A stretch of 64,000 bases of DNA, taken from assembly GCA_035702665.1 (NCBI GenBank), contig DASSQD010000132.1:1748-65747 (forward strand), given 5' to 3'. This document shows, one piece after another, positions 4,729 through 54,907 of the stretch. The first letter of the stretch is position 1; each line of letters opens with the position of its first letter. The translations under genes and the position numbers were made by a program. The stretch comes from Burkholderiales bacterium (GTDB taxonomy: Bacteria; Pseudomonadota; Gammaproteobacteria; Burkholderiales; SG8-39). The notes below the pieces were generated by a model. It was given only the letters and a program-made list of their open reading frames with translations. It was not told the DNA's origin and did not search any database.

Positions 4729-6156
4729 TCAACTCAATCTCACGTACTCGTACTCGACCGCGAGGTTGTTAATCCCCCGATCCGGCGGGGCGATCCAGCC
4801 GGCCATCTTTCCCGGCTCCATCACGCGCTGCATCAGGCTCGCGACGTACGCCTTGTCCGAGGCGCTCGGTATCCACTCCGGCAGGCGCCGGTCGTATTCC
4901 TCGCGGCTGATGAGCTTCCCGTCCAGATCCGTGGGAACGTTGGCGAAGGCGCCGATCGCGCGGCGGAAGCGGCTGTTCGGGAGCCGCAGCTCGAACCCCG
5001 CTCCCGCGCGCTTGATCTGCATGTTCCAGCGCTTCAGTCCGATTTCGCAATCCCTGACGTACGCCTCGCGCAGCACTTCGTTCATGGCGTTGCGCAGGCC
5101 TACGGTTTCCTTCTTCAGCGCTCCACGGCCATCGGGCAGGTCGAGATCGCAGGTCGCCTCGGCGCAGACGTGGTCCTGGTACTGGGTGGTTTCGTCGGGC
5201 CGCCCCTTGATGCCGTTGGCGAAGGTGCTCGCGGCGTTCGAGGACACTTCCGACCCGAACAGGTCGAGCGAGGAGCTGAACCAGAAGTTGAGGTAGCGCT
5301 GGAGCAGCGGCAGGTCGACCGCGCCGTGGCGGCGGATCACCGCCGGATCGTCGGTGCCGGTCTCCTTCATCACCTCGAGCGTGCGCTTCACGATGCGGCC
5401 GATGCCGGTCTCGCCGACGAACATGTGGTGCGCTTCCTCGGTGAGCATGAAGCGGCAGGTGCGCGCGAGCGGATCGAACGAGGACTCGGCGAGGCTCTTC
5501 AGCTGGAACTTGCCGTCGCGGTCGGTGAAGTAGGTGAAGCAGAAGAACGACAGCCAGTCGGAGATCGGCTCGTTGAACGTGCCGAGGATGCGCGGCTTGT
5601 CGACGTCGCCCGAGTGGCGCGCGAGCAGCTCCTCGGCCTCCTCGCGCCCGTCGCGCCCGAAATAGGCGTGCAGCAGGTAGACCATCGCCCAGAGGTGCCG
5701 CCCTTCCTCGACGTTGATCTGGAAGAGGTTGCGCAGGTCGTAGAGGGACGGACAAGTATGTCCGAGCAGATGCTGCTGCTCGACGGAGGCGGGCTCGGTG
5801 TCGCCCTGGGTGACGATCAGCCGGCGGAACTGCGAGCGGAATTCGCCGGGCACCTGCTGCCACACTGGCTGCCCGAAGGAGTCGCCGAAGCCGATGGTGC
5901 GATCGGGAATGGGATCGGCGAGGAAGATGCCCCATCGATAATCCGGCATCTTCACGGTGCCGTAGTTGGCCCACCCCTGCGCGTCGACGCCGATCGCGGT
6001 GCGCAGATACACGTCGGCCGACGCGAAATCGTTCGGCCCCATCTCGCGCCACCAGTCGAGGAAGTGCGGCTGCCAGTGCTCGAGGGCGCGCTGGAGCGTC
6101 TTGTCGTTCGCCAGGTTGACGTTGTTGGGGATCTTCTCGCTGTAGTTGATGCTCAT
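4729..6156 (-). CDS. boxB: benzoyl-CoA 2,3-epoxidase, oxygenase subunit B
   Basis: Track ORF 4729..7206 is over-extended. The homologous part starts at MSINYSEKIPNN (ATG 6156, 475 aa). Diiron ExxH pairs are present (VEEGRHLW, TEEAHHMF), and the overall sequence is recognisably BoxB. Confidence 0.93.
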   Translation of the reverse strand: MSINYSEKIPNNVNLANDKTLQRALEHWQPHFLDWWREMGPNDFASADVYLRTAIGVDAQGWANYGTVKMPDYRWGIFLADPIPDRTIGFGDSFGQPVWQQVPGEFRSQFRRLIVTQGDTEPASVEQQHLLGHTCPSLYDLRNLFQINVEEGRHLWAMVYLLHAYFGRDGREEAEELLARHSGDVDKPRILGTFNEPISDWLSFFCFTYFTDRDGKFQLKSLAESSFDPLARTCRFMLTEEAHHMFVGETGIGRIVKRTLEVMKETGTDDPAVIRRHGAVDLPLLQRYLNFWFSSSLDLFGSEVSSNAASTFANGIKGRPDETTQYQDHVCAEATCDLDLPDGRGALKKETVGLRNAMNEVLREAYVRDCEIGLKRWNMQIKRAGAGFELRLPNSRFRRAIGAFANVPTDLDGKLISREEYDRRLPEWIPSASDKAYVASLMQRVMEPGKMAGWIAPPDRGINNLAVEYEYVRLS

Positions 6157-6176
6157 GTGCGTCCTTGCCGTCGGGA

Positions 6177-7850
6177 CTAGACCCGGTCCCAGTTGAACTT
6201 CGCCTTCGCGCCGCTTCCGTAGACTTTCAGCGCGCCGTGCTCGCCGACCGCGTTGGGCCGGCTGAAGATCCAGTTCTGCCACGCGGACAGCCTGCCGAAG
6301 ATCCGCGTCTCCATGGTCTCCTTGCCCGAGAAGCGCAGGTTGGCCTCCATGCCGGTGAGCGCGTCCGGAGAGAGGCTGGCGCGCTCCTCGATCGCGATGC
6401 GCACCTCGTCGTCCCAGTCGAGGTCGTCGGGCGTGAACGTGACCAGTCCCAGTGCCGAGGCGGCCTTGGCGTCGAGCCTCTCGCCGACGTGCGCGCGCGC
6501 GGCCTCGACCGGCTGCGGATCGCCGCAATAGTGCGTGGCGATCCGCGATTCCCGGTTCACCATCGGGTAGGCGCCGAAGTTCAACTCCGAAAGCGCGATC
6601 ACCGGAGCGCCCGCGTCGTCCGGAAGCTCGAGCATGTAGCTGCGGTCGGCCGCCAGCGCCAGCTCGAACAGGGTGCCCGCGAAGCAGGAGCCCTTGTCGA
6701 TCACGGCGAACAGCGTGCGCGAGGACACGTCCAGCCGCGCGAGGGTGCGGCGCAGGAAGCCGATCACCTCGCGCACGAACCAGTCGCTCTCGTTGGCCTT
6801 CAGCGCGGCGTCCGCGGCGAGGGCCTTGCTTGCGTCGCCCCGCGTGTTGAAGATCCAGGTGCCGATCTCGAGGTCGTTGGTGCGGAGCATCAGGATCGCG
6901 TCGTCCAGCTCGCGCGCCATCGCCAGCGGCCACCACTTGTCGCCGGCGGCGTGAATGGCTGCGACGGAGGAGGGGACGTCCTGGCGCGGCGCGAACACGG
7001 TGATCGTCGCGGTGCGCTGCCTGCGGTCGATTTTCACGTCGACGTTGTCGTAGTGATAGCCTCCCGCGTCGAGCGTGCGCTTGAGCGGATTCAGAGGCAC
7101 GCCCTTGCCGGTCCCGCGCGCGCTCTGCGCCGCCAGCGCGGCCGCGCGCGCGGCGACCGCCTCCTTGAAGCCCTGCGGCTTGGCGGTGTGGTCGACGAGC
7201 TTCCATTGCTTCGCCCGGTCGGCGCGCACGCCCTCGCTGGTCGTGCAGAACACGTCGGCAAGGTCGCGCCTGACCTTTCTCTTGTCGGTGACGCGCGTGA
7301 GGCCGCCCGTCCCCGGGAGCACGCCGAGCAGAGGCAGCTCGGGCAGGCTGACGGTGGAGGAGCGGTCGTCGATCATCAGGATCTCGTCGCAGGCGAGCGC
7401 GAGCTCGTAGCCGCCGCCGGCGACGGTGCCGTTGACCGCCGCGAGCGCCTTGAGGCCGTCGTGCCGGCTCGAATCCTCGATGCCGCTGCGCGTCTCATTG
7501 GTGAACTTGCAGAAATTCACTTTCCATGCGTGAGTCGAGGACCCCAGCATATAGATGTTGGCGCCGGAGCAGAACATGCGCTCGCGCGCGCTCGTGATCA
7601 CCAGGCATTTCACCTCGGGGTGCTCGAAGCGCACGCGGTTCAGCGCGTCGGCGAGCTCGATGTCGACTCCCAGATCGTAGGAGTTGAGCTTGAGCTTGTA
7701 TCCGGGCTTGAGACCCTTGTCCTCGTTCACGTCCATCGAGAGCGTCGCGACCGGGCCGTCGAACGCGAGCTTCCAGTGCTCATAGCGGTCGGGATGCGTG
7801 TCGTAGGTGACGGGAGGGGGAGAAGGCTGGGGTTCGAGGACTGCGCTCAT
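6177..7850 (-). CDS. boxC: 2,3-epoxybenzoyl-CoA dihydrolase (ring-cleaving, crotonase fold)
   Basis: 557 aa from MSAVLEPQ (ATG 7850, inside track ORF 6177..7955). Enoyl-CoA hydratase-like core (AAVNGTVAGGGYELALACD). Length and position 20 nt upstream of boxB fit BoxC. Confidence 0.92.
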   Translation of the reverse strand: MSAVLEPQPSPPPVTYDTHPDRYEHWKLAFDGPVATLSMDVNEDKGLKPGYKLKLNSYDLGVDIELADALNRVRFEHPEVKCLVITSARERMFCSGANIYMLGSSTHAWKVNFCKFTNETRSGIEDSSRHDGLKALAAVNGTVAGGGYELALACDEILMIDDRSSTVSLPELPLLGVLPGTGGLTRVTDKRKVRRDLADVFCTTSEGVRADRAKQWKLVDHTAKPQGFKEAVAARAAALAAQSARGTGKGVPLNPLKRTLDAGGYHYDNVDVKIDRRQRTATITVFAPRQDVPSSVAAIHAAGDKWWPLAMARELDDAILMLRTNDLEIGTWIFNTRGDASKALAADAALKANESDWFVREVIGFLRRTLARLDVSSRTLFAVIDKGSCFAGTLFELALAADRSYMLELPDDAGAPVIALSELNFGAYPMVNRESRIATHYCGDPQPVEAARAHVGERLDAKAASALGLVTFTPDDLDWDDEVRIAIEERASLSPDALTGMEANLRFSGKETMETRIFGRLSAWQNWIFSRPNAVGEHGALKVYGSGAKAKFNWDRV

Positions 7851-7881
7851 GATGTGCTCCGAAATGGGTGGCGATGCCGGC

Positions 7882-8787
7882 CTAGGCCGAGATGGCCTTG
7901 CGCAGCTCCGCCAGGCTCTTCTCGACCGGCTTGCCCGCCGTATCCACGGTGACATCCGCCTGGCGGTAGAGCATCGCGCGGCCTTCCAGTATGCGCCGCA
8001 GATCCTCCATCGCCTGGTCGTTGCCCGCCATCGGACGCGTATCGCCCTGTGCGAGCACGCGAGCCATATGCTCCTCCGGGGCGGCCTTCAGCCAGACGGT
8101 GAAGCAGCTCGACAGCAGCAGGTCGTAGGTCCCGGGCTCGGAGACGATGCTGCCCCCGGTCGCGATCACCGCGCGCTCGTTCCGTTCCAGCACCTTCTCC
8201 AGGCTGCGGCGCTCGTAGCGGCGGTAACCCGACTGCCCGTAGAGCAGGAAGATCTCCGAAAGAGAAGTGCCGGCCTCGCGCTCGACCTCCCGGTCGAGCT
8301 CGACGAAGGGAACGCCCAGCGCCTTGGCGAGCTTTGCGCCCAGCGTCGACTTGCCCGCGCCGCGCAGTCCGATCAGGGCGATCCGCTTCAAGCGCTCGTC
8401 GCGGGCGTTGCCGTAGTCGCGCAGCAGTTGCGAGTGCACGGCGGCGAGCTTCTGGCGCGGGAGTTTTTTCAGAAACTGCGTGGTGAGGTTCAGCTCCGCG
8501 TCCGCGCCGGAGTCCTCGGCGAGCAGCTCGGTGAGGGTGAGCTCGAGGGCCGCGGCGATCTGCCGGAGCAGCAGAATGGAGACGTTGCCCAGTCCCGCCT
8601 CGAGTTGGGCCAGGTAGCGCTCCGATACGCCCGAGTCGGCCGCGAGGACTTTGCGGGACTTCGCTCGCCGGGCGCGCGCTTCCCGCAGTCTTTCCCCCAG
8701 GAGCAGCAGGTAGTCGCGCTCGGGATCCGCGCCGCTTGCGGCGGCGCGAAGCGGAGGCTTCTTGACATCAACGCTCGGTAGGGGCAC
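7882..8787 (-). CDS. boxR: BzdR/BoxR-type regulator (XRE HTH fused to a shikimate-kinase-like domain)
   Basis: 301 aa, GTG start. N-terminal HTH (KVLAADSGVSERYLAQLEAGLGNVSILLLRQIAAAL) plus a P-loop kinase-like domain (IALIGLRGAGKSTLG). Lies immediately upstream of boxC on the same strand. Confidence 0.85.
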   Translation of the reverse strand: MPLPSVDVKKPPLRAAASGADPERDYLLLLGERLREARARRAKSRKVLAADSGVSERYLAQLEAGLGNVSILLLRQIAAALELTLTELLAEDSGADAELNLTTQFLKKLPRQKLAAVHSQLLRDYGNARDERLKRIALIGLRGAGKSTLGAKLAKALGVPFVELDREVEREAGTSLSEIFLLYGQSGYRRYERRSLEKVLERNERAVIATGGSIVSEPGTYDLLLSSCFTVWLKAAPEEHMARVLAQGDTRPMAGNDQAMEDLRRILEGRAMLYRQADVTVDTAGKPVEKSLAELRKAISA

Positions 8788-8789
8788 GG

Positions 8790-8833
8790 TGCAGTATAAT
8801 GCTTGCCATTCGCAAACGCGGCAGTATAATGCA
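8790..8833. promoter_or_regulatory. two 12-bp direct repeats GCAGTATAATGC (TGCA-N6-TGCA-like boxes), putative BoxR operators
   Basis: Perfect copies at 8791-8802 and 8821-8832 (30-bp period) in the 80-bp boxR/flavodoxin divergent gap. In context they read TGCAGTATAATGCT and GGCAGTATAATGCA. Confidence 0.55.
8803..8830 (+). promoter_or_regulatory. sigma70-like promoter for the flavodoxin-bclA operon
   Basis: TTGCCA (8803-8808), 16-nt spacer, TATAAT (8825-8830). The -10 box lies inside the second operator repeat. Confidence 0.45.
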
Positions 8834-8867
8834 GCCCCATGTCGAAACGCAAGCGTGACGTGGCACG

Positions 8868-9344
8868 ATGGCGCTCGGGCTGACGATCCTCGTTGGCACC
8901 ATGACGGGCACGGCGCAGCTGGTGGCGCAGGAGGTGGAGCTGACGCTCGACGATGGCGATACGCGGGTGAGCACGAAGCCCATGGATGGCCTCGACGCGA
9001 GCGTGTTCGCCGGTGGCGGTCTGTTCCTGATCTGTTCGTCGACGTACGGGCAGGGCGACGTGCCCGACAATGCGAAACATCTCTACGAGTCGCTGCTGAA
9101 TCTGCGGCCCGACCTCTCGGGCGTGCAATACGGGGTCATCGCGCTCGGCGACCGCACCTATGCGGAGACCTTCTGCAACGGCGGCCGGCGCTTCGACGCG
9201 ATCCTCGCCGAGCTGGGGGCGCGGCGCATCGGGGAGGTCATGCTGCACGACGCCAGCGCCGGGACGATGCCCGAGGAGCTGGCGGTGGCGTGGGCGGCCG
9301 ACTGGATCGCCCTGTGCCGCAAGGAAGCCAGGCTCGAGGCCTGA
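8868..9344 (+). CDS. flavodoxin
   Basis: 158 aa. ILVGTMTGTAQ resembles the flavodoxin FMN phosphate-binding loop, and the length is short-chain flavodoxin-like. Confidence 0.85.
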   Translation: MALGLTILVGTMTGTAQLVAQEVELTLDDGDTRVSTKPMDGLDASVFAGGGLFLICSSTYGQGDVPDNAKHLYESLLNLRPDLSGVQYGVIALGDRTYAETFCNGGRRFDAILAELGARRIGEVMLHDASAGTMPEELAVAWAADWIALCRKEARLEA

Positions 9345-9368
9345 ATCGCGCGGAGGAGGGCTAGCGAA

Positions 9369-10949
9369 GTGGCGTCGTTCATCAGCGCCGATCATTCGGC
9401 GACCCCTCCGACGGTCCACGTTCCGCGCGACTACAACGCCGCGCACGATCTGATCGAGCGCAACCTTCTCGCGGGCCGCGCGGGCAAGATCGCATTCGTC
9501 GACGACGCCGGCCGGTACACCTACGGCGAGCTCGCGGAGCGCGTCAACCGCTTCGGCTCGGGGCTGCGGGCGCTGGGCATTGAGATGGAAGAGCGCGTGC
9601 TGCTCGCGCTCGCGGATACGATCGACTTCCCGACGGCTTTCCTCGGCGCGATCAAGGCGGGAATCGTCCCGGTCGCGGTCAATACGCTGCTTACGCCGAA
9701 GGACTACGCGCACATGCTCGCCGACAGCCGGGCGCGCGCCCTCGTCGTCTCCGAGCACCTCCTGCCGCAGTTCGAGCCGCTCGTCGGGACAATGCCTTTC
9801 CTGCGGCACGTCATCGTCTCGCGCAGTCGCGAGAAGGGAGGAGCCGCGATCGAGGACGTGCTCGCCGCGGGTTCCGCCGCGCTCGATCCGGCGCCGACCA
9901 CCTCGGACGATGCGTGCTGCTGGTACTACTCCTCGGGCTCGACCGGCGTGCCCAAGGGCGCAGTCCATGTTCACTCGAGCATGGCGATCACGGCCGAGCT
10001 CTACGGCAAGGCGGTGCTGGGAGTCAGGGAGTCGGACGTGCTCTTCTCAGCGGCGAAGCTGTGCTTCGTCTACGGCTTGGGCAACGCGCTCACCTTCACC
10101 CTCGCGGCCGGCGCCACCGGCGTGCTCATGGCCGAGCGCGCGACGCCTCCCGCGGTGTTCAGACGGCTGGTCGAGAGCAGGCCGACCGTATTCTTCGGCG
10201 TGCCCACCCTGTTCGCGTCGATGCTCGCCAGCCCGGAGTTCCCGGGAAAGAGCGAGCTCGCACTGCGCGCCTGCGTCTCCGCGGGCGAGGCGCTCCCCGC
10301 CGAGCTCGGCAAGCGCTGGAGGGAGAAGACCGGTGTCGACATCCTCGAAGGAATCGGCTCGACCGAGATGATGCACATGTACATCAGCGCCCGCCACGGC
10401 GGCGTCCGCTACGGGGCGACGGGCACGGCGGTACCCGGCTACGAGCTGCGGCTCGTGGACGAGGAGGGCAGGCCGGTCGAGCAGGGCGACCTGGGCGAGC
10501 TGCAGGTGCGCGGCCCGACGAGCGCCGCCTACTACTGGAACAACCGGGAAAAAAGCCGCTCGACCTTCCTCGGCCCCTGGTTCCGGAGCGGCGACAAGTT
10601 CAGGCAGGACGAACACGGCTACTTCGTCTACGCCGGCCGCTCCGACGACATGATGAAGGTCTCGGGCCTGTTCGTATCGCCGGCCGAGGTCGAGGCGGCG
10701 CTCGTCAGCCACGACGCGGTCCTCGAGGCCGCGGTGGTCGCCCGCGAGGACGACAACAAGCTGATCAAGCCCAAGGCGTTCGTCGTGCTCAAGGACGGCA
10801 CGTCGCCGTGCGACGAGCTCAAGCTCGCGTTGCAGCAGCACATCAAGGACCGGCTAGCACCCTACAAGTACCCCCGCTGGATCGAGTTCATCCCGGAGCT
10901 GCCCAAGACCCCCACCGGGAAGATCCAGCGCTTCAAGCTCCGTTCCTGA
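9369..10949 (+). CDS. bclA: benzoate-CoA ligase (AMP-forming)
   Basis: 526 aa, GTG start. AMP-binding motif YSSGSTGVPKG and C-terminal PKTPTGKIQRFKLR. The N-terminus (PRDYNAAHDLIERNL...) is typical of benzoate-CoA ligases, and it sits in the box cluster. Confidence 0.9.
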   Translation: MASFISADHSATPPTVHVPRDYNAAHDLIERNLLAGRAGKIAFVDDAGRYTYGELAERVNRFGSGLRALGIEMEERVLLALADTIDFPTAFLGAIKAGIVPVAVNTLLTPKDYAHMLADSRARALVVSEHLLPQFEPLVGTMPFLRHVIVSRSREKGGAAIEDVLAAGSAALDPAPTTSDDACCWYYSSGSTGVPKGAVHVHSSMAITAELYGKAVLGVRESDVLFSAAKLCFVYGLGNALTFTLAAGATGVLMAERATPPAVFRRLVESRPTVFFGVPTLFASMLASPEFPGKSELALRACVSAGEALPAELGKRWREKTGVDILEGIGSTEMMHMYISARHGGVRYGATGTAVPGYELRLVDEEGRPVEQGDLGELQVRGPTSAAYYWNNREKSRSTFLGPWFRSGDKFRQDEHGYFVYAGRSDDMMKVSGLFVSPAEVEAALVSHDAVLEAAVVAREDDNKLIKPKAFVVLKDGTSPCDELKLALQQHIKDRLAPYKYPRWIEFIPELPKTPTGKIQRFKLRS

Positions 10950-10988
10950 GCATTCCGGGCTTGCCTCGGCCGACCCGAGCGCCTAGAA

Positions 10989-11030
10989 TTCGAACGATGG
11001 TTCAAGTTTTGAATAGAAGTTCGAACGATG
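10989..11030. promoter_or_regulatory. array of TTCGAA-type palindromes / 11-bp direct repeat, possible TetR operator
   Basis: TTCGAACGATG at 10989-10999 and 11020-11030, flanking the inverted repeat TTCAA-gtt-TTGAA. Overlaps the first in-frame ATG of tetR. Confidence 0.35.
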
Positions 11031-11638
11031 CGGCGCTCTCCGAGCGCGTGCAGCGCAAGAACGACGCGCGCCGCCTCGAGATCCTGCGCGCCGCAGCTCG
11101 CGTCTTCCGCCGCCTCGGCGTCTCCGCCACCGGCATGCGCGAGATCGCGGAGGAAGCCGATCTCTCCCCCGGCAACCTGTATTACTACTTCGACGGCAAG
11201 GACGAGATCCTGCGCTTCTGCCAGGAGCGCACGCTCGAGCGCCTGATCGGCGCGGTCAAGTCGGCGCGCGCGGCCCCGGGCTCCTGGGCCGGGCGGCTGC
11301 GCTCGGTCCTGAGCGCGCACGTGCATTGCATGCTCGACGAGCTGGAGGGCGCGACCGCGCACCTCGAGATCGAAGCGTTGCCCGAGCGCATGCGCGCCGC
11401 GATCGTCCAGAAGCGCGACGCGTACGAGCGCGCGGTTCGCGCGCTGGTCGCGGAAGGCGTCAAAGCGCAGGAATTCGCACCCGCCGACCCGGCGCTGGTG
11501 ACGCGCGCGATGCTGGGCGCGGTGAACTGGACGGCGCGCTGGTACCGGCACGATGGTGCGCAGTCGGCCGGCGAGATCGCCGCTTCGCTTTCGGATTATC
11601 TGGTGCGCGGGCTGTTGCCCGCGAGGAAGGGTAAATGA
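10997..11638 (+). CDS. TetR-family transcriptional regulator
   Basis: 213 aa (tail of track ORF 9914..11638). HTH ILRAAARVFRRLGVSATGMREIAEEADLSPGNLYYYF. The start could instead be GTG 11048. The stop overlaps the hcrC ATG (ATGA). Confidence 0.85.
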   Translation: MVQVLNRSSNDAALSERVQRKNDARRLEILRAAARVFRRLGVSATGMREIAEEADLSPGNLYYYFDGKDEILRFCQERTLERLIGAVKSARAAPGSWAGRLRSVLSAHVHCMLDELEGATAHLEIEALPERMRAAIVQKRDAYERAVRALVAEGVKAQEFAPADPALVTRAMLGAVNWTARWYRHDGAQSAGEIAASLSDYLVRGLLPARKGK

Positions 11639-12132: not shown

Positions 12133-14585
12133 GCGCCAAGAAACGCTTCGAGGTGCTGGGCCGGCCGCGGCGGCGCGTCGACGGCCGCGCCAAGGTCACC
12201 GGCCTCACGCGCTTTGCCGACGACGTGGTGCTGCCGCGGATGGTCCACTGCAAGCTGCTGCGCTCGCCGCTGCCGCACGCGGTCATCGAATCCGTCGATG
12301 TGGCCAAGGCGCAGTCGCATCCCGGCGTGCACCTGGTGCTTACCGGGAAGGATTTTCCCGTGACTTTCGGCATCCTGCCGGTCACGCAGGACGAATATCC
12401 GCTCGCGCCGGAGCGCGTGCGCTACGTCGGCGATCCGGTCGCCGCGGTCATCGCCCGGGACGAGCAGACCGCGTTCGAGGCGCTCGATCTGATCGAGGTG
12501 AAATACCGGCCGCTGAAGACGATCTCCGATCCCGAGGAAGCGCTCGCGACCGCGGAGCCGCGCATCCAGAGCTACGGCGAGCAGGGCAACATCCATCGCC
12601 TCCAGGCCTACGAGTTCGGCGACGTCGAGGAGGCGCTTGCCCGTGCCGACCACGTTTTCGAGGACGTGTTCTTCTACCAGGGCAACACTCACCTGCCGAT
12701 CGAGCAGCATGCCTCGGTCGCCGCGGTGGACGGCGAAGGCAAGCTCACGCTCTGGTCCTCGACGCAGGTGCCGCACTACATCCACCGCGCGCTCGCCAAT
12801 GCACTGCAGATGCCGCCTGCCCACGTTCGCGTGATCGCCTGCCCGAACGGGGGCGGCTTCGGCGGCAAGTGCGACCTGCACAACCACGAGATCGTGGTGT
12901 CGAAGGCCGCGATCCTGCTCGGCCGGCCCGTGAAGATCTGCCTCACGCGCGAGGAGGTGTTCTACATGCACCGCGGCCGCCATCCGGTAACGATGCGCAT
13001 GCGCACCGGCGTGACCAGGGACGGGAAGATCACGGGCATGCACACCCAGACGCTGCTCGACGGCGGGGCGTACGGGAGCTACGGCGCCGCGAGCACCTTC
13101 TACACCGGCGTGCTCCAGACCGTGACCTACGAGATCCCGCGATACAAGTTCGACGCGGCGAGGGTGTTTACGAACAAGCCGCCCTGCGGCCCGAAGCGCG
13201 GCCACGGCACGCCGCAGCCCCGCTTCGGCCAGGAGATCCAGCTCGACAAGATCGCGGACGCGCTCGGGCTCGATCCTGCCGAATTCCGCCTGGGCATCGT
13301 CGCTAAGCCGGACACGCTGACCGCCAACTGGCTGAAGATCGGTTCGATCGGCCTCGCCGAGTGCATCCGCAAGGTCGTGGCGGCCTCCGACTGGAAGAAC
13401 CGGTATCGCAAGCTTCCCGACGGCCGCGGCGTCGGGATCGCTTGCGGCGCCTATCTGTGCGGCGCCGGGCTTCCCATCTACTGGAACAAGATGCCGCAGT
13501 CGGGGGTGCAGCTCCTGCTCGACCGCAGCGGCCAGGTCACCGTGTTCTGCGGCGCGACCGAGATCGGTCAGGGCTCGGACGACGTGCTCGCCGCGATCGT
13601 CGCCGAGGTGCTCGGGATCGACCCTTTCGACGTGCGCGTCGTGACCGGCGACACCGGCATCACGCCGGTCGACCTCGGCTCGTATTCGAGCCGCGTCACC
13701 GTGATGATGGGCAACGCCGCCATTCAGGCCGCCGAGCGCCTGCGCGATCTGATCGCGCGCGCGGCCGCCGATCACATGGAGACGCTGCCCGAGAACGTCG
13801 GCTTTGCGCACGCGCGCGTGTTCCGCGCCGACGATCCGGGCAAGCTGATGAGCTTCCGCGAGGCGATCATCCTCGCCGAGGAGAAGTTCGGCACGCTGGG
13901 CTCGGTCGGCTCGTACACACCGCCGCGCGCTCCCGGGCGCTACAAAGGCGCGGGCGTCGGGCCCTCGCCCGCGTATTCCTATACCGCGTGCGTCGTCGAG
14001 GCGGAGGTGGACAAGGCGACCGGCTGGATCAGCGTTCCCAAGGTGTGGATCGCGCACGACATCGGGCGTGCGATCAACCCGGTGCTCGCGCGCGGGCAGG
14101 TCGAGGGCAGCGTCTACATGGCGCTCGGCGAGGCGCTCATGGAAGAGCAGGTGTTCCGGCGCCTGCCGCCGAAGCTCTCGAACGCGCTCGTCCACAAGAT
14201 ACCGTCGCTCCTGGAATACAAGAGCCTGACGTCCCTGGACATGCCGGAGGTCTTTACCGAGCTGGTCGAGGATCCCGATCCGAATTGCCCGTTCGGCGCC
14301 AAGGAAGTGGGGCAGGGACCGCTCCTTCCCGTCATGCCCGCCGTGGCGAACGCCGTATACGACGCGGTGGGCGTGCGGATCGACGAGCTCCCGATCACGC
14401 CGGACAAGGTGCTCGCGGCGCTGGAGAAGAAGGCTAAGGGCGAGAATCCGCGCGTCGGGCCGGAGCGTTTCCCCGAGGTTCCCTACCCCGAGCCGATGCA
14501 GGTGCTTCCTCCCTGGGAAGGCGGGGACGGCAACGCGCTCAACGCGCCGCGCAAGTCGGCACCGAAGGAGAAGATCGCGTCATGA
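12129..14585 (+). CDS. hcrA: 4-hydroxybenzoyl-CoA reductase alpha subunit (molybdopterin)
   Basis: 818 aa from MSAKKRFEVLG (ATG 12129, ATGA-coupled to hcrC). XDH-family large-subunit motifs (NGGGFGGK, TEIGQGS, FGAKEVGQG). About 50 extra aa at the C-terminus. Confidence 0.8.
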   Translation: MSAKKRFEVLGRPRRRVDGRAKVTGLTRFADDVVLPRMVHCKLLRSPLPHAVIESVDVAKAQSHPGVHLVLTGKDFPVTFGILPVTQDEYPLAPERVRYVGDPVAAVIARDEQTAFEALDLIEVKYRPLKTISDPEEALATAEPRIQSYGEQGNIHRLQAYEFGDVEEALARADHVFEDVFFYQGNTHLPIEQHASVAAVDGEGKLTLWSSTQVPHYIHRALANALQMPPAHVRVIACPNGGGFGGKCDLHNHEIVVSKAAILLGRPVKICLTREEVFYMHRGRHPVTMRMRTGVTRDGKITGMHTQTLLDGGAYGSYGAASTFYTGVLQTVTYEIPRYKFDAARVFTNKPPCGPKRGHGTPQPRFGQEIQLDKIADALGLDPAEFRLGIVAKPDTLTANWLKIGSIGLAECIRKVVAASDWKNRYRKLPDGRGVGIACGAYLCGAGLPIYWNKMPQSGVQLLLDRSGQVTVFCGATEIGQGSDDVLAAIVAEVLGIDPFDVRVVTGDTGITPVDLGSYSSRVTVMMGNAAIQAAERLRDLIARAAADHMETLPENVGFAHARVFRADDPGKLMSFREAIILAEEKFGTLGSVGSYTPPRAPGRYKGAGVGPSPAYSYTACVVEAEVDKATGWISVPKVWIAHDIGRAINPVLARGQVEGSVYMALGEALMEEQVFRRLPPKLSNALVHKIPSLLEYKSLTSLDMPEVFTELVEDPDPNCPFGAKEVGQGPLLPVMPAVANAVYDAVGVRIDELPITPDKVLAALEKKAKGENPRVGPERFPEVPYPEPMQVLPPWEGGDGNALNAPRKSAPKEKIAS

Positions 14586-15601
14586 TGCGCCTGCCCTGGT
14601 TCGGCTTCCGGTCGCCTTCGAGCGTCGGCGAAGCGGCGAGAATCCTCGCGGCGGAGGGACCGGAGGCGATGCTCATCGCGGGCGGCACCGACCTTCTCCC
14701 CAACATGAAGCGCCGCCACCAGACGCCGAGCACGCTCGTTTCGCTCGGCCGGATCGACGCCCTGAAGAAGGCGGCCAACGGCCCGGGCGCAAGGCTCGGC
14801 GCGGGACTGACGTTGAACGAGGTCGTCGCGAGCGCGATGGTCCGGGAGAAGTACACGGGGCTGTGGCAGGCGGCGGCGCAGGTCGCGACCGTCCATCTTC
14901 GCAACATGGGCACCCTCGGCGGCAACCTGTGCCTGGACACGCGCTGCAACTACTACAACCAGAACTACGAGTGGCGCAAGGCGATCGATTTCTGCCTGAA
15001 GAAGGATGGCGAGACCTGCTGGGTCGCCACCGCGAGCAAGCGCTGTGTCGCCACGTCATCGACCGACTGCGCGCCCGCCCTGATATCGCTGGGCGCCAGC
15101 GTGCGCCTGGTCTCGACCCAGGGCGAGCGCGACGTCGCGCTCGCCGATCTCTATCGGAACGACGGCATCGACTACCTCGCGCGCCGGCCCGACGAGATCC
15201 TCACAGAGGTGAAGCTGCCGCAAGCCGAGGGCTGGAGGAGCAGCTATTGGAAACTGCGCCGCCGCGGGGCCTTCGATTTTCCCGTGCTGGGCGTCGCCGC
15301 GGCGGTGAAGACGGCGCGCGACGGGACGGTGGAGGAGGCGCGCATCGCGCTCGGCGCGGTATCCTCGCGGCCCCTGCTCACCAAAGGCGGAGAGCTCCTC
15401 GTCGGCAGGAAGCTGAACGACGATGCAATCGCCGAAGCCGGGGCCAAGGTCGCCTCGGCCGCGAAGCCCATGGACAACACCGACCTGGATCTCTACTGGA
15501 GAAAGAGCGTGGTCTCCGAGTTCGTCGGCTACGCGCTGCGCGAGATCCGCGGCGACGACATCAGCGCGACGCGCCTGCGGATCGCCCGGCAGGCGCTCTA
15601 G
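14582..15601 (+). CDS. hcrB: 4-hydroxybenzoyl-CoA reductase beta subunit (FAD + extra [4Fe-4S] loop)
   Basis: 339 aa, ATGA-coupled to hcrA. FAD-binding fold (LIAGGTDLLPNMK) with a Cys-rich insertion: C117, C122, C138, C146, C155, C163. Small-large-medium gene order as in hcrCAB/hbaBCD. Confidence 0.85.
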   Translation: MMRLPWFGFRSPSSVGEAARILAAEGPEAMLIAGGTDLLPNMKRRHQTPSTLVSLGRIDALKKAANGPGARLGAGLTLNEVVASAMVREKYTGLWQAAAQVATVHLRNMGTLGGNLCLDTRCNYYNQNYEWRKAIDFCLKKDGETCWVATASKRCVATSSTDCAPALISLGASVRLVSTQGERDVALADLYRNDGIDYLARRPDEILTEVKLPQAEGWRSSYWKLRRRGAFDFPVLGVAAAVKTARDGTVEEARIALGAVSSRPLLTKGGELLVGRKLNDDAIAEAGAKVASAAKPMDNTDLDLYWRKSVVSEFVGYALREIRGDDISATRLRIARQAL

Positions 15602-17142
15602 GGCTGCGGCGGCGCGATCAGCTTCTGGATCACCGGACGCGAGCCCTCGAGCGCGACGCGCTGCATGTAAAAGGCCAGTCCGCGCGCTTCGCCCAGTTCC
15701 TCGCCTCCGCCGGCGCGCCCCGGACCGCCGTGTACGAGCTGCGGGAGGACGGTTCCCGGTCCCGGCGACATCTCGATCTTCGGATGGCCGAGAAATATTC
15801 TTCCATGATAAGGTGCGATGCCTTGGACGACCTCTTCGAGGAAGTCCGCGTCCTCGGAGTACACCGAGGACACCAGCCCGCCGTTGCCGCGGGTGACGAT
15901 TGCCGCGGCATCCGCGCCCCTGCCCGAATAGGGGAGCAGCGACGCGACCGGCCCGAACACCTCCCGGGCGTGCACCGAGGCGGCGAGCGCGTCCTTCGCG
16001 AATTCCACGAGGACCGGCGAGATGAAGAAGCCTTTGCCGGCGAGCGCGGCGGCGCTGCCGAAGGCCGCCTTGCCTTCCGCCGAGAGCTGTTCGACGCCTT
16101 CGCGCACGTCGGTGAGCTGAGCGCGGCTGGCCACCGGTCCCATGCGCGTCTCCTCCAGCGCCGGATTGCCGACGCGCACCGCTTTGAGCCCTTCGACGAG
16201 ATCGCCGCGCAGCGTCGCCGCGTGCGCGTCGGCGACGAGCACGCGGCGGATCGCGGTGCATTTCTGCCCCGCTTTCTGCGTCATGTCGCGCAACACGTCC
16301 TTGAGGAAGGTTTCGTACATGTCGCTGCCCGGCTCCGCGTCCGGGCCGAGCACCGCGGCGTTCAGGCTGTCCGCCTCGACGTTCACGCGCACCGATTCGC
16401 GGGCGACGTTGGGCAGCGCGCGGATGCGGACGCCCGTGTCGCCGGACCCCGTGAATGCGAGCACGTCCTGGCTGCCGAGGAGCGCCGGCAGCTCGCGCGG
16501 CGCGCCGACCAGGAGCGAGAGCGCCCCCTCGGGCAGGATCTTCTTCTCGACGAGGATTTCCATCAACCGGTGCGCCACCAGCGCCGAGCTCGTCGCCGGC
16601 TTGGAGAGCACGGGCATGCCGGCGAGCAGCGCGCACGCCGCCTTCTCCGCCAGACCCCAGGCGGGAAAGTTGAAGGCGTTGATGTGCACTGCGACGCCGT
16701 GACGCGGCACGCACACGTGCTGCCCGTGGAACCGCGGCGAGCGCCCGAGCTGCACGCCTTCGCCGTCCACGAGGATCTTCGCTGCGCCGAGCTTCTCGCC
16801 CACCTCGGAATACGACTGGAGGGTGAAGATCGCGCCGTCGACATCGAACTTCGCGTCCGAGCGCGTGTTGCCGCCGTTGGCGACCGAGAGATCGAGCAAT
16901 TCGTCGCGGTGAGCCTGGATCGCCTTCGCGGTTTCCTTCAGCAGCGCGCCGCGCTCGGCGAAGGACAGCGTGCGCAGCGCCGGGCCGCCTTTTCTCCGTG
17001 CAAAGTCGAGCGCGCCGGCGAGATCCAGGCCGTCGCTCGAGGCTTGCGCAAGCGCCTCCTCGGTTGCGGGATTGACGAGGATCTGCGGCGCGCCCGATCC
17101 TTCGATCCAGCGGCCGCCCAGGTAGCTTCGCAGCGTCTTCAT
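15598..17142 (-). CDS. boxD: 3,4-dehydroadipyl-CoA semialdehyde dehydrogenase (aldehyde dehydrogenase family)
   Basis: 514 aa with a PaaZ-N/BoxD-like N-terminus (MKTLRSYLGGRWIEGSG). ALDH catalytic region (QKCTAIRR). Box context and a BoxR-type box upstream. Confidence 0.85.
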   Translation of the reverse strand: MKTLRSYLGGRWIEGSGAPQILVNPATEEALAQASSDGLDLAGALDFARRKGGPALRTLSFAERGALLKETAKAIQAHRDELLDLSVANGGNTRSDAKFDVDGAIFTLQSYSEVGEKLGAAKILVDGEGVQLGRSPRFHGQHVCVPRHGVAVHINAFNFPAWGLAEKAACALLAGMPVLSKPATSSALVAHRLMEILVEKKILPEGALSLLVGAPRELPALLGSQDVLAFTGSGDTGVRIRALPNVARESVRVNVEADSLNAAVLGPDAEPGSDMYETFLKDVLRDMTQKAGQKCTAIRRVLVADAHAATLRGDLVEGLKAVRVGNPALEETRMGPVASRAQLTDVREGVEQLSAEGKAAFGSAAALAGKGFFISPVLVEFAKDALAASVHAREVFGPVASLLPYSGRGADAAAIVTRGNGGLVSSVYSEDADFLEEVVQGIAPYHGRIFLGHPKIEMSPGPGTVLPQLVHGGPGRAGGGEELGEARGLAFYMQRVALEGSRPVIQKLIAPPQP

Positions 17143-17201
17143 TCGCGTTCCGGCTCTTTTGGGGTGTCGCTAGGATAGCCGAAGCGGCCGCGAGATGGAC
17201 A

Positions 17202-17215
17202 TGCACTAAAATGCA
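17202..17215. promoter_or_regulatory. TGCA-N6-TGCA box (TGCACTAAAATGCA) upstream of boxD
   Basis: Perfect TGCA-CTAAAA-TGCA 60 nt upstream of the boxD start, overlapping the first ATG of the divergent ggt-family ORF. Same pattern as the 8790-8833 boxes. Confidence 0.5.
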
Positions 17216-18845
17216 CCGCATGTTTCCGATCGCCACCGGCAGGCCCGCGAGCCTGGCGCCGAACGGCATGATCGCATCGCCGCACTCGCTCGCTTCCGCC
17301 GCGGGCGCAGACGCGCTGCGCGCAGGAGGTTCCGCCGTGGACGCGGCGGTCGCGGCCGGCGCGGTGCTGTCCGTGGTGTATCCGCACATGACGAGCGTCG
17401 GCGGCGACGCCTTCTGGCTGATCTACGACGCGCGCGCGCGGCGCGTGCGCTACCTGAACGGCGGAGGGCGCGCGGCGCGCGGGGCGAGCATCGATTGGTT
17501 CCGCGCGCGCGGGATGAACGAGGTTCCCCTGCGCGGATTTCTCCCCGCGACCCTGACCACGCCCGGCGCGGTCGCCAGCTGGTGCGCCGCGCACGAGCAG
17601 TACGGCAGGCTGCCCCTCTCGCGCGACCTCGCCGCGGCGATCGGCTATGCGCGCGGGGGATTCCCGGTCACCGGGCGCCTCGCGCGCGCGATCGAGCTGC
17701 ACGCCTCCGACGGCTCGCTGAACGCCGGTGCGCTCGCGCTTCTTGCTCCCGGGGGAGCCGCGCCGCGCGCGGGCGGGAAGCTGGCCAACGGCGCTCTGGC
17801 GCTCGTGCTGGAGCGCATCGCGCAGGAAGGCCGCGAGGGATTCTACGGCGGCGAGACGGCGCGTTCGCTCGCCGCGTTCTCGCGCGCGGGCGGCGGGTTC
17901 TTCGACGCGACGGACCTGGCGGCCCAACGCGCGACCTGGGGCGAGCCGCTCTCAGGCACCTATCGCGGCGTGGAGATCTTCGAGACCCCTCCGCCGACGC
18001 AGGGGTTCGCCGTCATCGAAATGCTGAATCTCGTGGAGAGCGCGGAGGTCGGCAGAATGGATCCGCTGGGCCCGGAACTCGCGCACCTGCTCGTGCAGGC
18101 GAAGCAGATCGCCTACCACGACCGCGACCGGCTGCTCGCCGACCCCGAGTACCAGCCGGTACCCGTCGACAGGCTGATCGCCAAGACCTACGCCGCCGAG
18201 CGTCGCAGGCTGATGCGCGCCGACCGCGCCCTTCCCTGGGACCTGGTCCCGTCCTACGGCACGCTCGCGGGCGACACTGTCTTCGTCGCGGCGGTCGACG
18301 CCGAGGGCAACGCCGCGGCGCTGGTCCAGAGCCTGTATTTCACCTTCGGCGCCGGGATCGTCGCGGGCGATACCGGGATCGTGATGCAGAACCGCTCGGC
18401 CTATTTCTCGCTCGATCCGCAGCATCCCAACCGCCTCGAGCCCGGCAAGCGGCCCCTGCACACCCTGATCGCGTCGATGGCGTTGCAGGACGGCAGCCTC
18501 CGGCACGTGCTCGGCTGCATGGGAGCGGACGGCCAGCCGCAGATCCACCTGCAAGGCTACGTCGGCCTGATCGATTTCGGATTCGATATCCAGCATGCGC
18601 TCGAGATGCCGCGGTGGCTGTCGGGAAGGTTCAACATCGGCGACCCGCGCGACCTGCTCAACATGGAAGGGCGATTCCCGGAAGCCACCGCCAGGGAACT
18701 CGAGCGCCGCGGACACGCCGTCAACCGGTGGCCGGATTGGTGCGAGCTTGCGGGGCACGCGCACGGGATCACGGTCGACCCGGCGTCGGGCGTTCGCATC
18801 GGCGGGGCCGATCCCCGGAGCGACGGCGCGGCCATAGGCTGCTAG
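17211..18845 (+). CDS. gamma-glutamyltransferase-family (Ntn hydrolase) protein
   Basis: 544 aa; the start may be the second ATG at 17220. GGT-like N-terminus (MIASPHSLASAAGADALRAGGSAVDAAVA). Autoprocessing/nucleophile region GDTVFVAAVDAEGNAAALVQSLYFTFG. Confidence 0.85.
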   Translation: MHRMFPIATGRPASLAPNGMIASPHSLASAAGADALRAGGSAVDAAVAAGAVLSVVYPHMTSVGGDAFWLIYDARARRVRYLNGGGRAARGASIDWFRARGMNEVPLRGFLPATLTTPGAVASWCAAHEQYGRLPLSRDLAAAIGYARGGFPVTGRLARAIELHASDGSLNAGALALLAPGGAAPRAGGKLANGALALVLERIAQEGREGFYGGETARSLAAFSRAGGGFFDATDLAAQRATWGEPLSGTYRGVEIFETPPPTQGFAVIEMLNLVESAEVGRMDPLGPELAHLLVQAKQIAYHDRDRLLADPEYQPVPVDRLIAKTYAAERRRLMRADRALPWDLVPSYGTLAGDTVFVAAVDAEGNAAALVQSLYFTFGAGIVAGDTGIVMQNRSAYFSLDPQHPNRLEPGKRPLHTLIASMALQDGSLRHVLGCMGADGQPQIHLQGYVGLIDFGFDIQHALEMPRWLSGRFNIGDPRDLLNMEGRFPEATARELERRGHAVNRWPDWCELAGHAHGITVDPASGVRIGGADPRSDGAAIGC

Positions 18846-18925
18846 AGCCGGCTCGCGCCGGCTTCTTGACGCTCCGGGCGTGGGAGCGAACAATCGCGTG
18901 GCAGCGCGAACAAAGGAGGAATGCC

Positions 18926-20509
18926 GTGCCGTCCCGCAGCAGTGCCGACCATTCGGTGAGCCCGCCGAGCGTCAAGATCCCCCGCGACTACAACGCCGCG
19001 TACGACCTGATCGAGCGCAACCTGGCGGCGGGACGCGCCGCGCGGATCGCGTACATCGACGACGCCGGCCAGTACACCTTCGGGCAGCTCGCCGAGCGCG
19101 TCAACCGCTTCGGCTCGGGACTCCGCGCGCTGGGGCTGGACATGGAGCACCGCGTGCTCCTCGCTCTCACCGACACGGTCGACTTTCCGACCGCCTTCCT
19201 CGGCGCGATCAAGGCGGGCATCGTGCCGGTGGCGGTCAACACGCTGCTCACGCCGAAAGACTACGAGTACATGCTCGCGGATAGCCGCGCCAAAGCACTG
19301 ATCGTATCCGAGGCACTGCTTCCGCAATTCGCCGGCGCCATCGGCAGGCTACCCTTCCTCAAGCACGTCATCGTCTCGGGCTCGGGGTCGCCGCAGGGAC
19401 ACCTTGCGTTCAAGGAGGTTCTCGCCAAGGGGGCGCCCGAGCTCGCACCCGCGCCCACGACCTGCGACGACGCCTGCTTCTGGCTGTATTCCTCGGGCTC
19501 GACCGGCATGCCCAAGGGCACGGTGCACGTGCACTCGAGCATGATCATCACCGCGGAGCTCTACGCGCGCGGCGTGCTCGGGTACCGGGAAAGCGACGTG
19601 GTGTTCTCGGCGGCCAAGCTCTTCTTCGCCTACGGGCTGGGCAACGCGCTGTCCTTCACGCTCGCGGTGGGCGCGACCGCCGTGCTGATGGCGGAGAGGC
19701 CGACGCCTGCGGCGGTGTTCAAGCGTTTCAAGGAGAAGAAGCCGACGCTGTTCTTCGGCGTCCCCACGCTCTATGCGGCGATGCTGGCGAGCCCCGACCT
19801 TCCGGGAAGGGAGGCGCTCGCGCTGCGCCAGTGCATCTCGGCGGGAGAGGCCCTGCCGCCGCAGATCGCGAAGCGCTGGAAGGAGAGGATCGGGGTGGAG
19901 ATTCTCGACGGGATCGGATCGACCGAGATGCTCCACATCTTCCTTTCGAACCGCCCGGACGACCTGCGCTACGGCACCACCGGAAAGCCCGTTCCGGGAT
20001 ACGACCTGAGGCTGGTCGACGAGCAGGGCGAGCCGGTGAAGCCAGGGGAGATGGGCGAGCTGCAGATCAGAGGCCCCACCAGCGCAGCGTACTACTGGAA
20101 CAACCGCGAGAAGAGCCGTAGCACCTTCCACGGCGGCTGGACGCGCAGCGGCGACAAGTACACCCAGGACAAGGACGGCTACTACGTCTACGGCGGGCGC
20201 TCCGACGACATGCTGAAAGTGTCCGGGATCTACGTGTCGCCGGCCGAAGTCGAGGCGGCGCTCGTCGGGCACGAGGCGGTTCTCGAGGCGGCCGTCATCG
20301 GTGCCGAGGACGAGAACAAGCTGGTGAAGCCCAAGGCGTTCGTCGTGCTCAAGCCGGGCAATTCCGGCAGCGACGCGCTCAAGGCGGCGCTGCAGCAGCA
20401 CGTGAAGGACAAGCTCGCCCCCTACAAGTATCCGCGCTGGATAGAGTTTCTGCCCGAGTTGCCGAAGACGGCGACCGGGAAGATACAGAGATTCAAGCTG
20501 CGAGCCTGA
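18926..20509 (+). CDS. second benzoate/4-hydroxybenzoate-CoA ligase paralogue
   Basis: 527 aa. GTG 18926 follows AAGGAGG (tail of track ORF 17495..20509). Collinear with bclA over its full length (YSSGSTGMPKG, PKTATGKIQRFKLR). The first ~150 nt look roughly 85% identical to bclA by eye. Confidence 0.9.
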   Translation: MPSRSSADHSVSPPSVKIPRDYNAAYDLIERNLAAGRAARIAYIDDAGQYTFGQLAERVNRFGSGLRALGLDMEHRVLLALTDTVDFPTAFLGAIKAGIVPVAVNTLLTPKDYEYMLADSRAKALIVSEALLPQFAGAIGRLPFLKHVIVSGSGSPQGHLAFKEVLAKGAPELAPAPTTCDDACFWLYSSGSTGMPKGTVHVHSSMIITAELYARGVLGYRESDVVFSAAKLFFAYGLGNALSFTLAVGATAVLMAERPTPAAVFKRFKEKKPTLFFGVPTLYAAMLASPDLPGREALALRQCISAGEALPPQIAKRWKERIGVEILDGIGSTEMLHIFLSNRPDDLRYGTTGKPVPGYDLRLVDEQGEPVKPGEMGELQIRGPTSAAYYWNNREKSRSTFHGGWTRSGDKYTQDKDGYYVYGGRSDDMLKVSGIYVSPAEVEAALVGHEAVLEAAVIGAEDENKLVKPKAFVVLKPGNSGSDALKAALQQHVKDKLAPYKYPRWIEFLPELPKTATGKIQRFKLRA

Positions 20510-23689: not shown

Positions 23690-23731
23690 CGCGGGCGCGC
23701 GGCAGGGCGCCAAATGCGACTCTGAGGAGAA

Positions 23732-54903: not shown

Positions 54904-54907
54904 ATTC

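Follow-up and report, generated by a model that had tools for sequence, protein, structure and literature searches.

An operon resembling that for 4-hydroxybenzoyl-coenzyme A (CoA) reductase (4-HBCR; HcrCAB) lies among genes of the O2-dependent box pathway in a stretch of DNA from a Burkholderiales bacterium (GTDB SG8-39; assembly GCA_035702665.1, contig DASSQD010000132.1, forward-strand positions 1,748-65,747). What does such an enzyme do beside a pathway that uses O2? The whole stretch that was analysed, 64,000 nucleotides (nt) long, is called the window here, and the cluster occupies its positions 4729-20509. An earlier note on this DNA proposed that 4-hydroxybenzoate is converted through 4-hydroxybenzoyl-CoA to benzoyl-CoA, which then enters BoxBC and BoxD, and it took HcrCAB to be the enzyme known from Thauera and Rhodopseudomonas. 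The reading preferred here, judged to be slightly on the probable side, is that the cluster is a BoxR-regulated, BoxA-less box pathway with an embedded tetR-hcrCAB operon, in which a TetR-controlled molybdenum (Mo) enzyme reductively removes a para-substituent and feeds benzoyl-CoA to the Box enzymes. Its HcrCAB is not a borrowed anaerobic HcrCAB; by sequence it belongs to a clade of its own in which the catalytic residue has changed. The route is plausible, with strong comparative support.

Because the G+C content of the window is high, genes were called by third-position GC bias (GC3) with a suffix-score caller, and they were named with NCBIfam and Pfam. In related loci genes were called and clustered, tblastn was used for the presence of families, and the neighbourhood radius was 10 kb. 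The layout claimed for the cluster in the earlier note is borne out by the gene calls and family scans, and the genes are, in order:

4729-6156, minus strand: boxB, diiron subunit of benzoyl-CoA 2,3-epoxidase (equivalog TIGR03225, full-length, 751 bits against a cut-off of 499; start from the GC3 caller)
6177-7850, minus strand: boxC, 2,3-epoxybenzoyl-CoA dihydrolase (equivalog TIGR03222, 931 bits against 712)
7882-8787, minus strand: boxR/bzdR-type regulator with a helix-turn-helix and a shikimate-kinase-like domain (NF006015, 407 bits against 204)
8868-9344, plus strand: short flavodoxin (MioC/YqcA-like), first gene of the flavodoxin-ligase unit (NF005989, 121 bits, and NF006531, 100 bits, both below cut-off)
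9369-10949, plus strand: aryl-CoA ligase 1, benzoate-CoA ligase family (TIGR02262, 754 bits against 375)
10997-11638, plus strand: TetR-family regulator of the acyl-CoA-sensing type (PF00440 and PF17932, TetR_C_24)
11635-12132, plus strand: hcrC-like gamma subunit bearing a pair of [2Fe-2S] clusters (TIGR03193, 182 bits against 258)
12129-14585, plus strand: hcrA-like Mo-cofactor alpha subunit of 818 amino acids (aa) (TIGR03194, 793 bits against 995; 1RM6_A, 565 bits)
14582-15601, plus strand: hcrB-like flavin adenine dinucleotide (FAD) beta subunit with an extra [4Fe-4S] Cys loop (TIGR03195, 294 bits against 405; 1RM6_B, 184 bits)
15598-17142, minus strand: boxD (equivalog NF008868, 688 bits against 444)
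17211-18845, plus strand: gamma-glutamyltransferase (GGT)-family gene (TIGR00066, 346 bits, just below the cut-off of 358)
18926-20509, plus strand: aryl-CoA ligase 2, benzoate-CoA ligase family (TIGR02262, 819 bits; start codon GTG, preceded at 6 nt by an AAGGAGG site)

BoxB, BoxC and BoxD each exceed their equivalog cut-offs, as expected of a box pathway such as that of Azoarcus evansii or Burkholderia (boxR-boxC-boxB-boxA, boxD, bclA), and the benzoate-CoA ligase is likewise adjacent. Unlike in that system, the hcrCAB-like operon is inserted between two putatively BoxR-controlled units, a flavodoxin gene heads the ligase unit, and after boxD come a GGT-family gene and another ligase gene. 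ATGA overlaps had been noted for tetR-hcrC-hcrA-hcrB; there are three, coupling tetR/hcrC, hcrC/hcrA and hcrA/hcrB, and boxD is convergent with hcrB, their 3' ends overlapping by 4 bases. Ligase 2 is 71-76% identical to ligase-1-type genes in tblastn cross-matches with related loci. A minus-strand open reading frame (ORF) of 229 aa (10862-11551) was considered as tetR and rejected, having no family match and being the shadow of the plus-strand TetR gene. The absence of benzoyl-CoA reductase (BCR) genes stated in the earlier note stands for class I, of which tblastn finds no homologue in the 64-kb window.

The first step is to ask what kind of enzyme HcrCAB is. Its three subunits of the xanthine-oxidase family (Mo alpha, FAD beta and 2x[2Fe-2S] gamma) and their C-A-B gene order are those of Thauera aromatica HcrCAB (1RM6/1SB3) and Rhodopseudomonas palustris HbaBCD, which also have an aryl-CoA ligase nearby. 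The best or near-best NCBIfam matches are TIGR03193, TIGR03194 and TIGR03195; for HcrC a glyceraldehyde dehydrogenase gamma model (185 bits) is about equal to TIGR03193, and for HcrA, which has the domains PF01315, PF02738 and PF20256, TIGR03194 is the best model by a margin of 260 bits. Among solved structures the next family reaches 280 bits, and the full-length 565-bit match to Thauera HcrA (1RM6_A) fixes the predicted fold of the alpha subunit. Members of the clade bear generic names at NCBI and are named 4-HBCR at JGI.

The tree is a bootstrapped neighbour-joining (NJ) tree of HcrA-like representatives from an exhaustive representative search (50%-identity clusters). One clade (bootstrap 100, identity within it at least 69%), referred to here as the window clade, unites the window HcrA with 14 relatives belonging to several phyla, while proteins of Thauera, Magnetospirillum, Aquabacterium and Sedimenticola form the canonical clade (bootstrap 100, at least 75% identity within); identity between the two is about 40%. 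An HCR-like superclade (bootstrap 86) joins both with about 14 other lineages. A phylogenetic check proposed earlier thus came out in two parts: HcrA falls in one superclade with canonical 4-HBCR but not inside the Thauera clade. The view that HcrCAB is a Thauera/Rhodopseudomonas-type enzyme fails, since it belongs to a separate clade, scores below all three cut-offs and has Gln in place of the catalytic Glu. By its phylogeny HcrCAB is best described as a distinct, strongly conserved clade in the 4-HBCR branch of the xanthine-oxidase family.

The beta subunit of Thauera and R. palustris 4-HBCR contains an insertion with the Cys residues of a [4Fe-4S] cluster. All five Thauera Cys (1RM6_B) align in the window HcrB, they are present in 77 of 77 window-clade members, and every other HCR-like lineage sampled has kept them. 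Placement in the superclade together with this loop indicates that the window enzyme is structurally in the reductase class without being an ortholog of the characterised enzymes. HcrA also shares with Thauera HcrA a PPCG...RGHG loop (pairwise alignment, read by eye). Two segments are specific to the window clade relative to Thauera HcrA, namely a C-terminal tail of about 50 aa (residues ~768-818; 14430-14585) with the conserved PYPEP...PPWEGGDG and an insertion around RRLPPKLSNALVHKIPS (window ~14150-14220); a role in docking a partner is possible for both.

A scan with one genome per species found 583 relatives, and the contexts were read for the best 80 (68-90% identity). As a control, 80 canonical-clade loci were taken from metagenomes; these loci are shorter than the window-clade loci. 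The active site, too, marks the enzyme off from 4-HBCR. Gln729 of the window HcrA aligns with E726 of Thauera HcrA and E692 of Escherichia coli PaoC, and all 80 window-clade loci have Gln here, while all 76 canonical loci in which the region is covered have Glu. Gln is also found in the nearest superclade lineages P0241 and P0247 and, outside the superclade, in P0271. P0247 is a Gln-bearing sister lineage in an anaerobe-type cluster, so that the change from Glu to Gln either predates the link to box genes or is independent of it. In the P0247 context (L086), genes for two 2-oxoacid:ferredoxin oxidoreductases (OFORs) and a TetR_C_24 regulator accompany a PaaK-like ligase gene and genes of aconitase-like and HMGL-like type.

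This residue bears on whether the enzyme could act oxidatively, as a (hetero)aryl-CoA hydroxylase like 2-furoyl-CoA dehydrogenase, and be unrelated to the supply of benzoyl-CoA. Hydroxylases make up most of the xanthine-oxidase family, CoA ligases are adjacent, and genes for defence against reactive oxygen lie nearby. The hydroxylases, however, need a general-base Glu (PMC13653126), and with Gln throughout the clade the enzyme is unlikely to act as an ordinary hydroxylase. It carries the [4Fe-4S] loop of the reductase class, and hmfD/E-like partners are absent; a plasmid search found no close relative of HcrA, the best plasmid-borne protein being at most 37% identical. A hydroxylase is therefore scarcely credible.

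The second step is to ask with which pathway the clade travels. At least one box gene lies within 10 kb of the operon in 26 of the 80 window-clade loci by tblastn (18 of 36 when both flanks span at least 8 kb), and an aryl-CoA ligase lies near 26 of 80. By gene clusters, the commonest neighbours are TetR (32 loci, in all of which tetR is directly 5' of hcrC) and the benzoate-CoA-ligase family (20, or a PaaK-like ligase), followed by boxR (19), boxC (18), boxB (15), boxD (15) and flavodoxin (10). There are at least four gene orders in two phyla, three of them in Burkholderiales. The order of the window is common to L002, L003, L004 and L025; a second is boxR<fldx>LIG ... FMO>tetR>hcrCAB, where FMO is a flavin-dependent monooxygenase, and a third is boxD<...Prx<hcrCAB, with Prx a peroxiredoxin. 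In Acidobacteriota a single strand carries boxR>boxC>boxB>Amidohydro_2>(PaaK-like ligase>tetR>)hcrCAB. The proposed passage from 4-hydroxybenzoate through benzoyl-CoA to BoxBC and BoxD therefore stands in part: the link from aryl-CoA to Box recurs in 26 of 80 loci, but the enzyme is not of the Thauera type.

The canonical clade behaves differently. Of the 80 window-clade loci 18 have boxB or boxC within 10 kb, and of the 80 canonical loci none (Fisher p = 2.6e-6), whereas class-I BCR genes are near 1 of 80 window-clade loci, which thus lack the BCR association of 4-HBCR, and near 10 of 80 canonical loci (Fisher p = 0.009), although both tests overstate significance because the loci are phylogenetically non-independent. 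No boxB, boxC or boxR occurs in the 80 canonical-clade metagenome loci, and no box gene in four canonical genome contexts, one of which, that of Aquabacterium humicola, has BCR genes and a ferredoxin 7 kb from hcr. Canonical hcrCAB often stands beside a PaaK-like ligase and a trio made up of a dimethyl sulfoxide (DMSO)-reductase-family Mo enzyme, a 4Fe-4S subunit and a membrane subunit resembling DmsC; the trio was seen at the canonical loci L081, L083 and L085 and in 11 of L089-L168, and is absent from window-clade loci.

These counts tell against an anaerobic pathway, in which the host would be a facultative anaerobe with BCR elsewhere in its genome and hcrCAB would lie beside box only through the formation of aromatic-gene islands. 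At L075 the operon does adjoin class-I BCR genes and a ferredoxin gene, the search for class-I BCR in the host covered the 64 kb of the window, and in Aromatoleum an upper pathway feeds both routes (PMC9765128). The scarcity of BCR near the clade and the exclusive linkage of boxB/boxC to it (18 versus 0) speak against such a pathway, as do the Acidobacteriota loci, where hcr genes follow boxR-boxC-boxB on the same strand, and the origin of the clade mainly in soil metagenome-assembled genomes (MAGs). An anaerobic role is accordingly regarded as improbable.

Other lineages of the superclade show what chemistry surrounds the window clade. P0242 adjoins class-I BCR and an OFOR, P0247 adjoins a PaaK-like ligase and two OFORs, and the two lineages bracket the window clade with reductive, aryl-CoA, anaerobic contexts. 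Together, the recurring linkage to box and ligase genes, the placement in the superclade and the [4Fe-4S] loop make a flow from aryl-CoA to benzoyl-CoA to BoxBC and BoxD the most economical reading.

Next to the operon, 14 of the 80 loci have genes for a peroxiredoxin, AhpC/TSA or Cu/Zn superoxide dismutase, a setting consistent with operation under O2. Three arrangements occur, with a 1-Cys peroxiredoxin directly 5' of hcrC, with AhpC/TSA or with Cu/Zn superoxide dismutase (L007, L008, L012, L017, L018, L020, L041, L050, L053, L060, L062, L067, L071 and L077). The window has a 1-Cys peroxiredoxin gene of its own at 32578-33231 on the minus strand.

The third step concerns the substrate. The same layout and the same Box sink could serve another compound from which a different group is reductively removed, for example through deamination of 4-aminobenzoyl-CoA or conversion of halo- or dihydroxy-benzoyl-CoA, vanilloyl-CoA or protocatechuoyl-CoA, with the Gln reflecting a different leaving group. 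The separation of the clade below the equivalog cut-offs and the invariant Gln at the catalytic position would fit this, as would the GGT and amidase genes of the window and the varied aromatic partners of related loci (an aryl-CoA-hydroxylase-like FMO 5' of tetR in five loci, Amidohydro_2 and an MhpA-like hydroxylase). No neighbour is specific to amino- or halo-aromatics, though, and Gln occurs as well in the sister lineage P0247, whose aryl-CoA context is anaerobic and generic. No para-substituted benzoate is commoner in soil than 4-hydroxybenzoate, which also speaks against another substrate. A different substrate is considered unlikely, though it deserves more weight than the hydroxylase or the anaerobic pathway.

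Some of these partners recur in particular positions. By gene clusters, 10 of 80 loci have a neighbouring FMO that is similar to salicylyl-CoA 5-hydroxylase over the N-terminal half of the latter; the five loci with an FMO directly 5' of tetR-hcrCAB are L007, L008, L023, L032 and L034. The FMO of the window (387 aa; 35738-37884, with an MTHFR-like gene following it) has its match to the bifunctional salicylyl-CoA 5-hydroxylase (NF006101, 360 bits) confined to the N-terminal half of that enzyme, and the pair lies beside a PcaK-like aromatic-acid transporter gene (37889-39241) and an extradiol-dioxygenase-like gene (40297-41211). Amidohydro_2 (PF04909) is of two types, one between boxB and hcrC in Acidobacteriota and one in Burkholderiales (L054, L059, L060, L062, L067, L070, L071, L072 and L077; also L016, L019, L037 and L053); neither type has a specific NCBIfam match.

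The fourth step is to ask how the Box part works, since it lacks a gene. The reference Burkholderiaceae cluster, that of Mycetohabitans, carries boxR-boxC-boxB-boxA. With the Mycetohabitans BoxA as query, tblastn found no match either in the window or at any of the 80 related loci, 18 of which have boxB/boxC, and no ORF combines 2x4Fe-4S with an FNR-type layout. One candidate of BoxA-like length with two Cys motifs (L065_8, 420 aa) was rejected, as its sequence looks like a CCG-type Fe-S protein and the BoxA tblastn misses it. The absence of boxA from every box-bearing locus means that some other protein must reduce BoxB. In the 10 related Burkholderiales loci that have it, the flavodoxin gene always lies between boxR and the ligase, and this putatively BoxR-controlled flavodoxin is the obvious candidate for the reductant of BoxB in Burkholderiales.

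The missing boxA raises the possibility that HcrCAB serves as a module for electron transfer instead of, or besides, dehydroxylation, its FAD/[4Fe-4S] beta subunit replacing BoxA as reductase for the diiron centre of BoxB. BoxA carries FAD plus [4Fe-4S], as does HcrB, and in Acidobacteriota hcrCAB sits 3' of boxB, the normal place of boxA in the reference order. A mere electron carrier does not account for a full Mo subunit under strong purifying selection (at least 68% identity across phyla), for an operon with its own TetR and promoter and no BoxR operator, or for the 54 of 80 loci without nearby box genes, and in Burkholderiales the BoxR-controlled flavodoxin is the simpler substitute for BoxA. 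Such a module is held to be very improbable.

The fifth step is regulation, for which the following elements were found:

8791-8832, between boxR and the flavodoxin gene: two copies of GCAGTATAATGC (sites 8791/8821), a TGCA-N6-TGCA-like putative BoxR/BzdR operator
8803-8830, same region: sigma70-like promoter, 11/12 match to consensus, its -10 hexamer overlapped by the second GCAGTATAATGC copy
10961-10989, plus strand: sigma70-like promoter TTGCCT-17-TAGAAT before tetR-hcrCAB, a consensus match only
17202-17215, boxD/GGT divergent region: perfect TGCA-N6-TGCA site TGCACTAAAATGCA

TGCA-N6-TGCA is the operator type of BzdR/BoxR (Azoarcus sp. CIB), and TGCACTAAAATGCA is its only perfect match in 64 kb. 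A regulator matching NF006015 is thus accompanied by putative sites of this type in both divergent promoter regions (8791/8821 and 17202), which the cluster has in common with the box systems of A. evansii and Burkholderia. The same operator-like motif is found in the boxR-flavodoxin intergenic regions of L002, L003, L004 and L025, and homologous sites lie between boxD and GGT in L043 and between boxD and boxR in L054, so that the motif recurs in equivalent intergenic regions across both phyla. The GGT-family gene and ligase 2 form a unit divergent from boxD behind the perfect site, and the order boxD-GGT-ligase is kept in L002, L004, L005, L025 and L043.

No BoxR-type operator lies 5' of tetR-hcrCAB, which indicates that the operon is not part of the BoxR regulon. 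With a promoter-like site of its own, the hcr module would be an independently induced unit nested between two BoxR-controlled units. Its TetR is assigned by domain content (TetR_C_24) to the acyl-CoA-sensing subgroup, and among the nearest solved structures (3DCF, 3VPR, DarR, KstR2 and FadR) are two acyl-CoA sensors, FadR and KstR2, and a regulator from Thermus.

Assembled into a mechanism, the preferred reading would run as follows. One of the two ligases would activate a para-substituted benzoate, most likely 4-hydroxybenzoate; alternatively, 4-hydroxybenzoyl-CoA could come from beta-oxidation of phenylpropanoids. The aryl-CoA thioester would release the TetR repressor and so induce the operon. 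The Mo enzyme would take low-potential electrons, from flavodoxin, NAD(P)H or ferredoxin, through the [4Fe-4S]/FAD of the beta subunit and the two [2Fe-2S] clusters, and would reductively strip the para substituent, most simply the hydroxyl of 4-hydroxybenzoyl-CoA, to give benzoyl-CoA. BoxB would then epoxidise benzoyl-CoA with one O2, BoxC would open the ring and BoxD would oxidise the semialdehyde. The substrate, like the reductive direction, the electron donor and operation under O2, is something that we infer, in the case of the substrate because the clade is separate, Gln replaces Glu and the canonical clade is never box-linked in the 80 control loci.

Several points weigh against this mechanism. 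HcrA is only about 40% identical to Thauera HcrA, the only characterised enzyme, and HcrC, HcrA and HcrB all score below the 4-HBCR equivalog cut-offs; with Gln at the equivalent of Thauera E726, the chemistry or the substrate may differ. More than half of the window-clade loci (the 54 mentioned above) have no box gene within 10 kb, the hcr operon lacks the BoxR-type site of its neighbours, and the search for class-I BCR genes in the host was bounded by the window. No obvious generator of low-potential reductant is encoded nearby, and canonical 4-HBCR is described as O2-sensitive and ferredoxin-dependent (PMC12771579).

How new would such a route be? No description of box-hcr synteny or of a box-linked HCR clade was found in open-access papers and preprints. 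The idea that reductive dehydroxylation feeds the box route does have a precedent. For the 3-(4-hydroxyphenyl)propanoate network of Aromatoleum aromaticum, strain EbN1, a "presumptive reductive dehydroxylation" has been put into the part common to aerobic and anaerobic growth (Becker et al. 2022; PMC9765128). This step carries the annotation HcrCAB and is called no more than presumptive; after it, benzoyl-CoA enters the anaerobic or the box route in "hybrid pathways". The strain is reported to have exported 4-hydroxybenzoate while growing on 3-(4-hydroxyphenyl)propanoate. EbN1 thus shares the concept of 4-hydroxybenzoyl-CoA passing through benzoyl-CoA to box, but no dedicated box-linked enzyme clade is described there. 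Further reductive members of the xanthine-oxidase family do exist. Ucdh, the urolithin C 9-dehydroxylase of Enterocloster, has been called only the second reductive dehydroxylase of the family (PNAS 2025; PMC12771579) and, like the proposed window enzyme, removes a phenolic hydroxyl para to a carbonyl; it differs in being about 33% identical to 4-HBCR and NADH-dependent, in acting on a substrate without CoA and in coming from a gut anaerobe.

The window clade also differs from Thauera and R. palustris 4-HBCR in where it lives, being TetR-regulated, box-linked rather than bcr-linked and almost confined to uncultured bacteria of soil and groundwater. Soil and groundwater metagenomes, along with MAGs of Burkholderiales or Betaproteobacteria, supply the closest proteins (83-94% identical). 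The best 80 of the 583 relatives are all from MAGs except for Acidobacteria bacterium Mor1, and belong to Burkholderiales, Acidobacteriota, Krumholzibacteriia, Planctomycetota and Gammaproteobacteria; when cultured carriers were sought by profile search, nothing but MAG or unnamed proteins came up. This is probably why no experimental work on the clade was found.

Elsewhere the window encodes GGDEF proteins, transporters and an amidase, and it has a gene cluster for type II secretion. Genes for a PepSY_TM protein, an ApbE flavin transferase and an unassigned 185-aa ORF (1-2342) are kept 5' of the box cluster in the closest relatives, L004 and L025. The intervals 20517-24859, 34107-35516 and 51783-63243 contain three GGDEF proteins (one with PAS), a Sir2-family gene and a complete gspC-L set; the Sir2-family gene (22928-23689) is also common near hcrCAB in related Burkholderiales loci.

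The pairing of an hcr-like clade with box genes, found in dozens of soil genomes, suggests an undescribed low-oxygen route for plant phenolics. A more far-reaching proposal, advanced here tentatively and thought to be rather less than probable, is that the clade represents an O2-compatible aryl-CoA dehydroxylase, a third reductive class of the xanthine-oxidase family that works without the family's "essential" Glu and is fed by flavodoxin or NAD(P)H instead of anaerobic ferredoxin systems, and that together with a BoxA-less BoxBC it forms a fully CoA-dependent route for 4-hydroxybenzoate and lignin phenolics that is widespread in uncultured soil Burkholderiales and Acidobacteriota. If this is true, each ring would cost the CoA-dependent route one O2, against two in the protocatechuate route. 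Strictly anaerobic aromatic catabolism is the process for which 4-HBCR serves as a marker, and KEGG 'hcrA' is counted in this sense in metagenome surveys; with an abundant soil clade tied to the O2-dependent box pathway, such counts would be misread. The natural Glu-to-Gln variant bears directly on the debated mechanism of the xanthine-oxidase family's reductive enzymes. If the function holds, reductive molybdenum chemistry would be extended into aerobes, and soil carbon turnover would include a low-oxygen, CoA-dependent funnel for plant phenolics.

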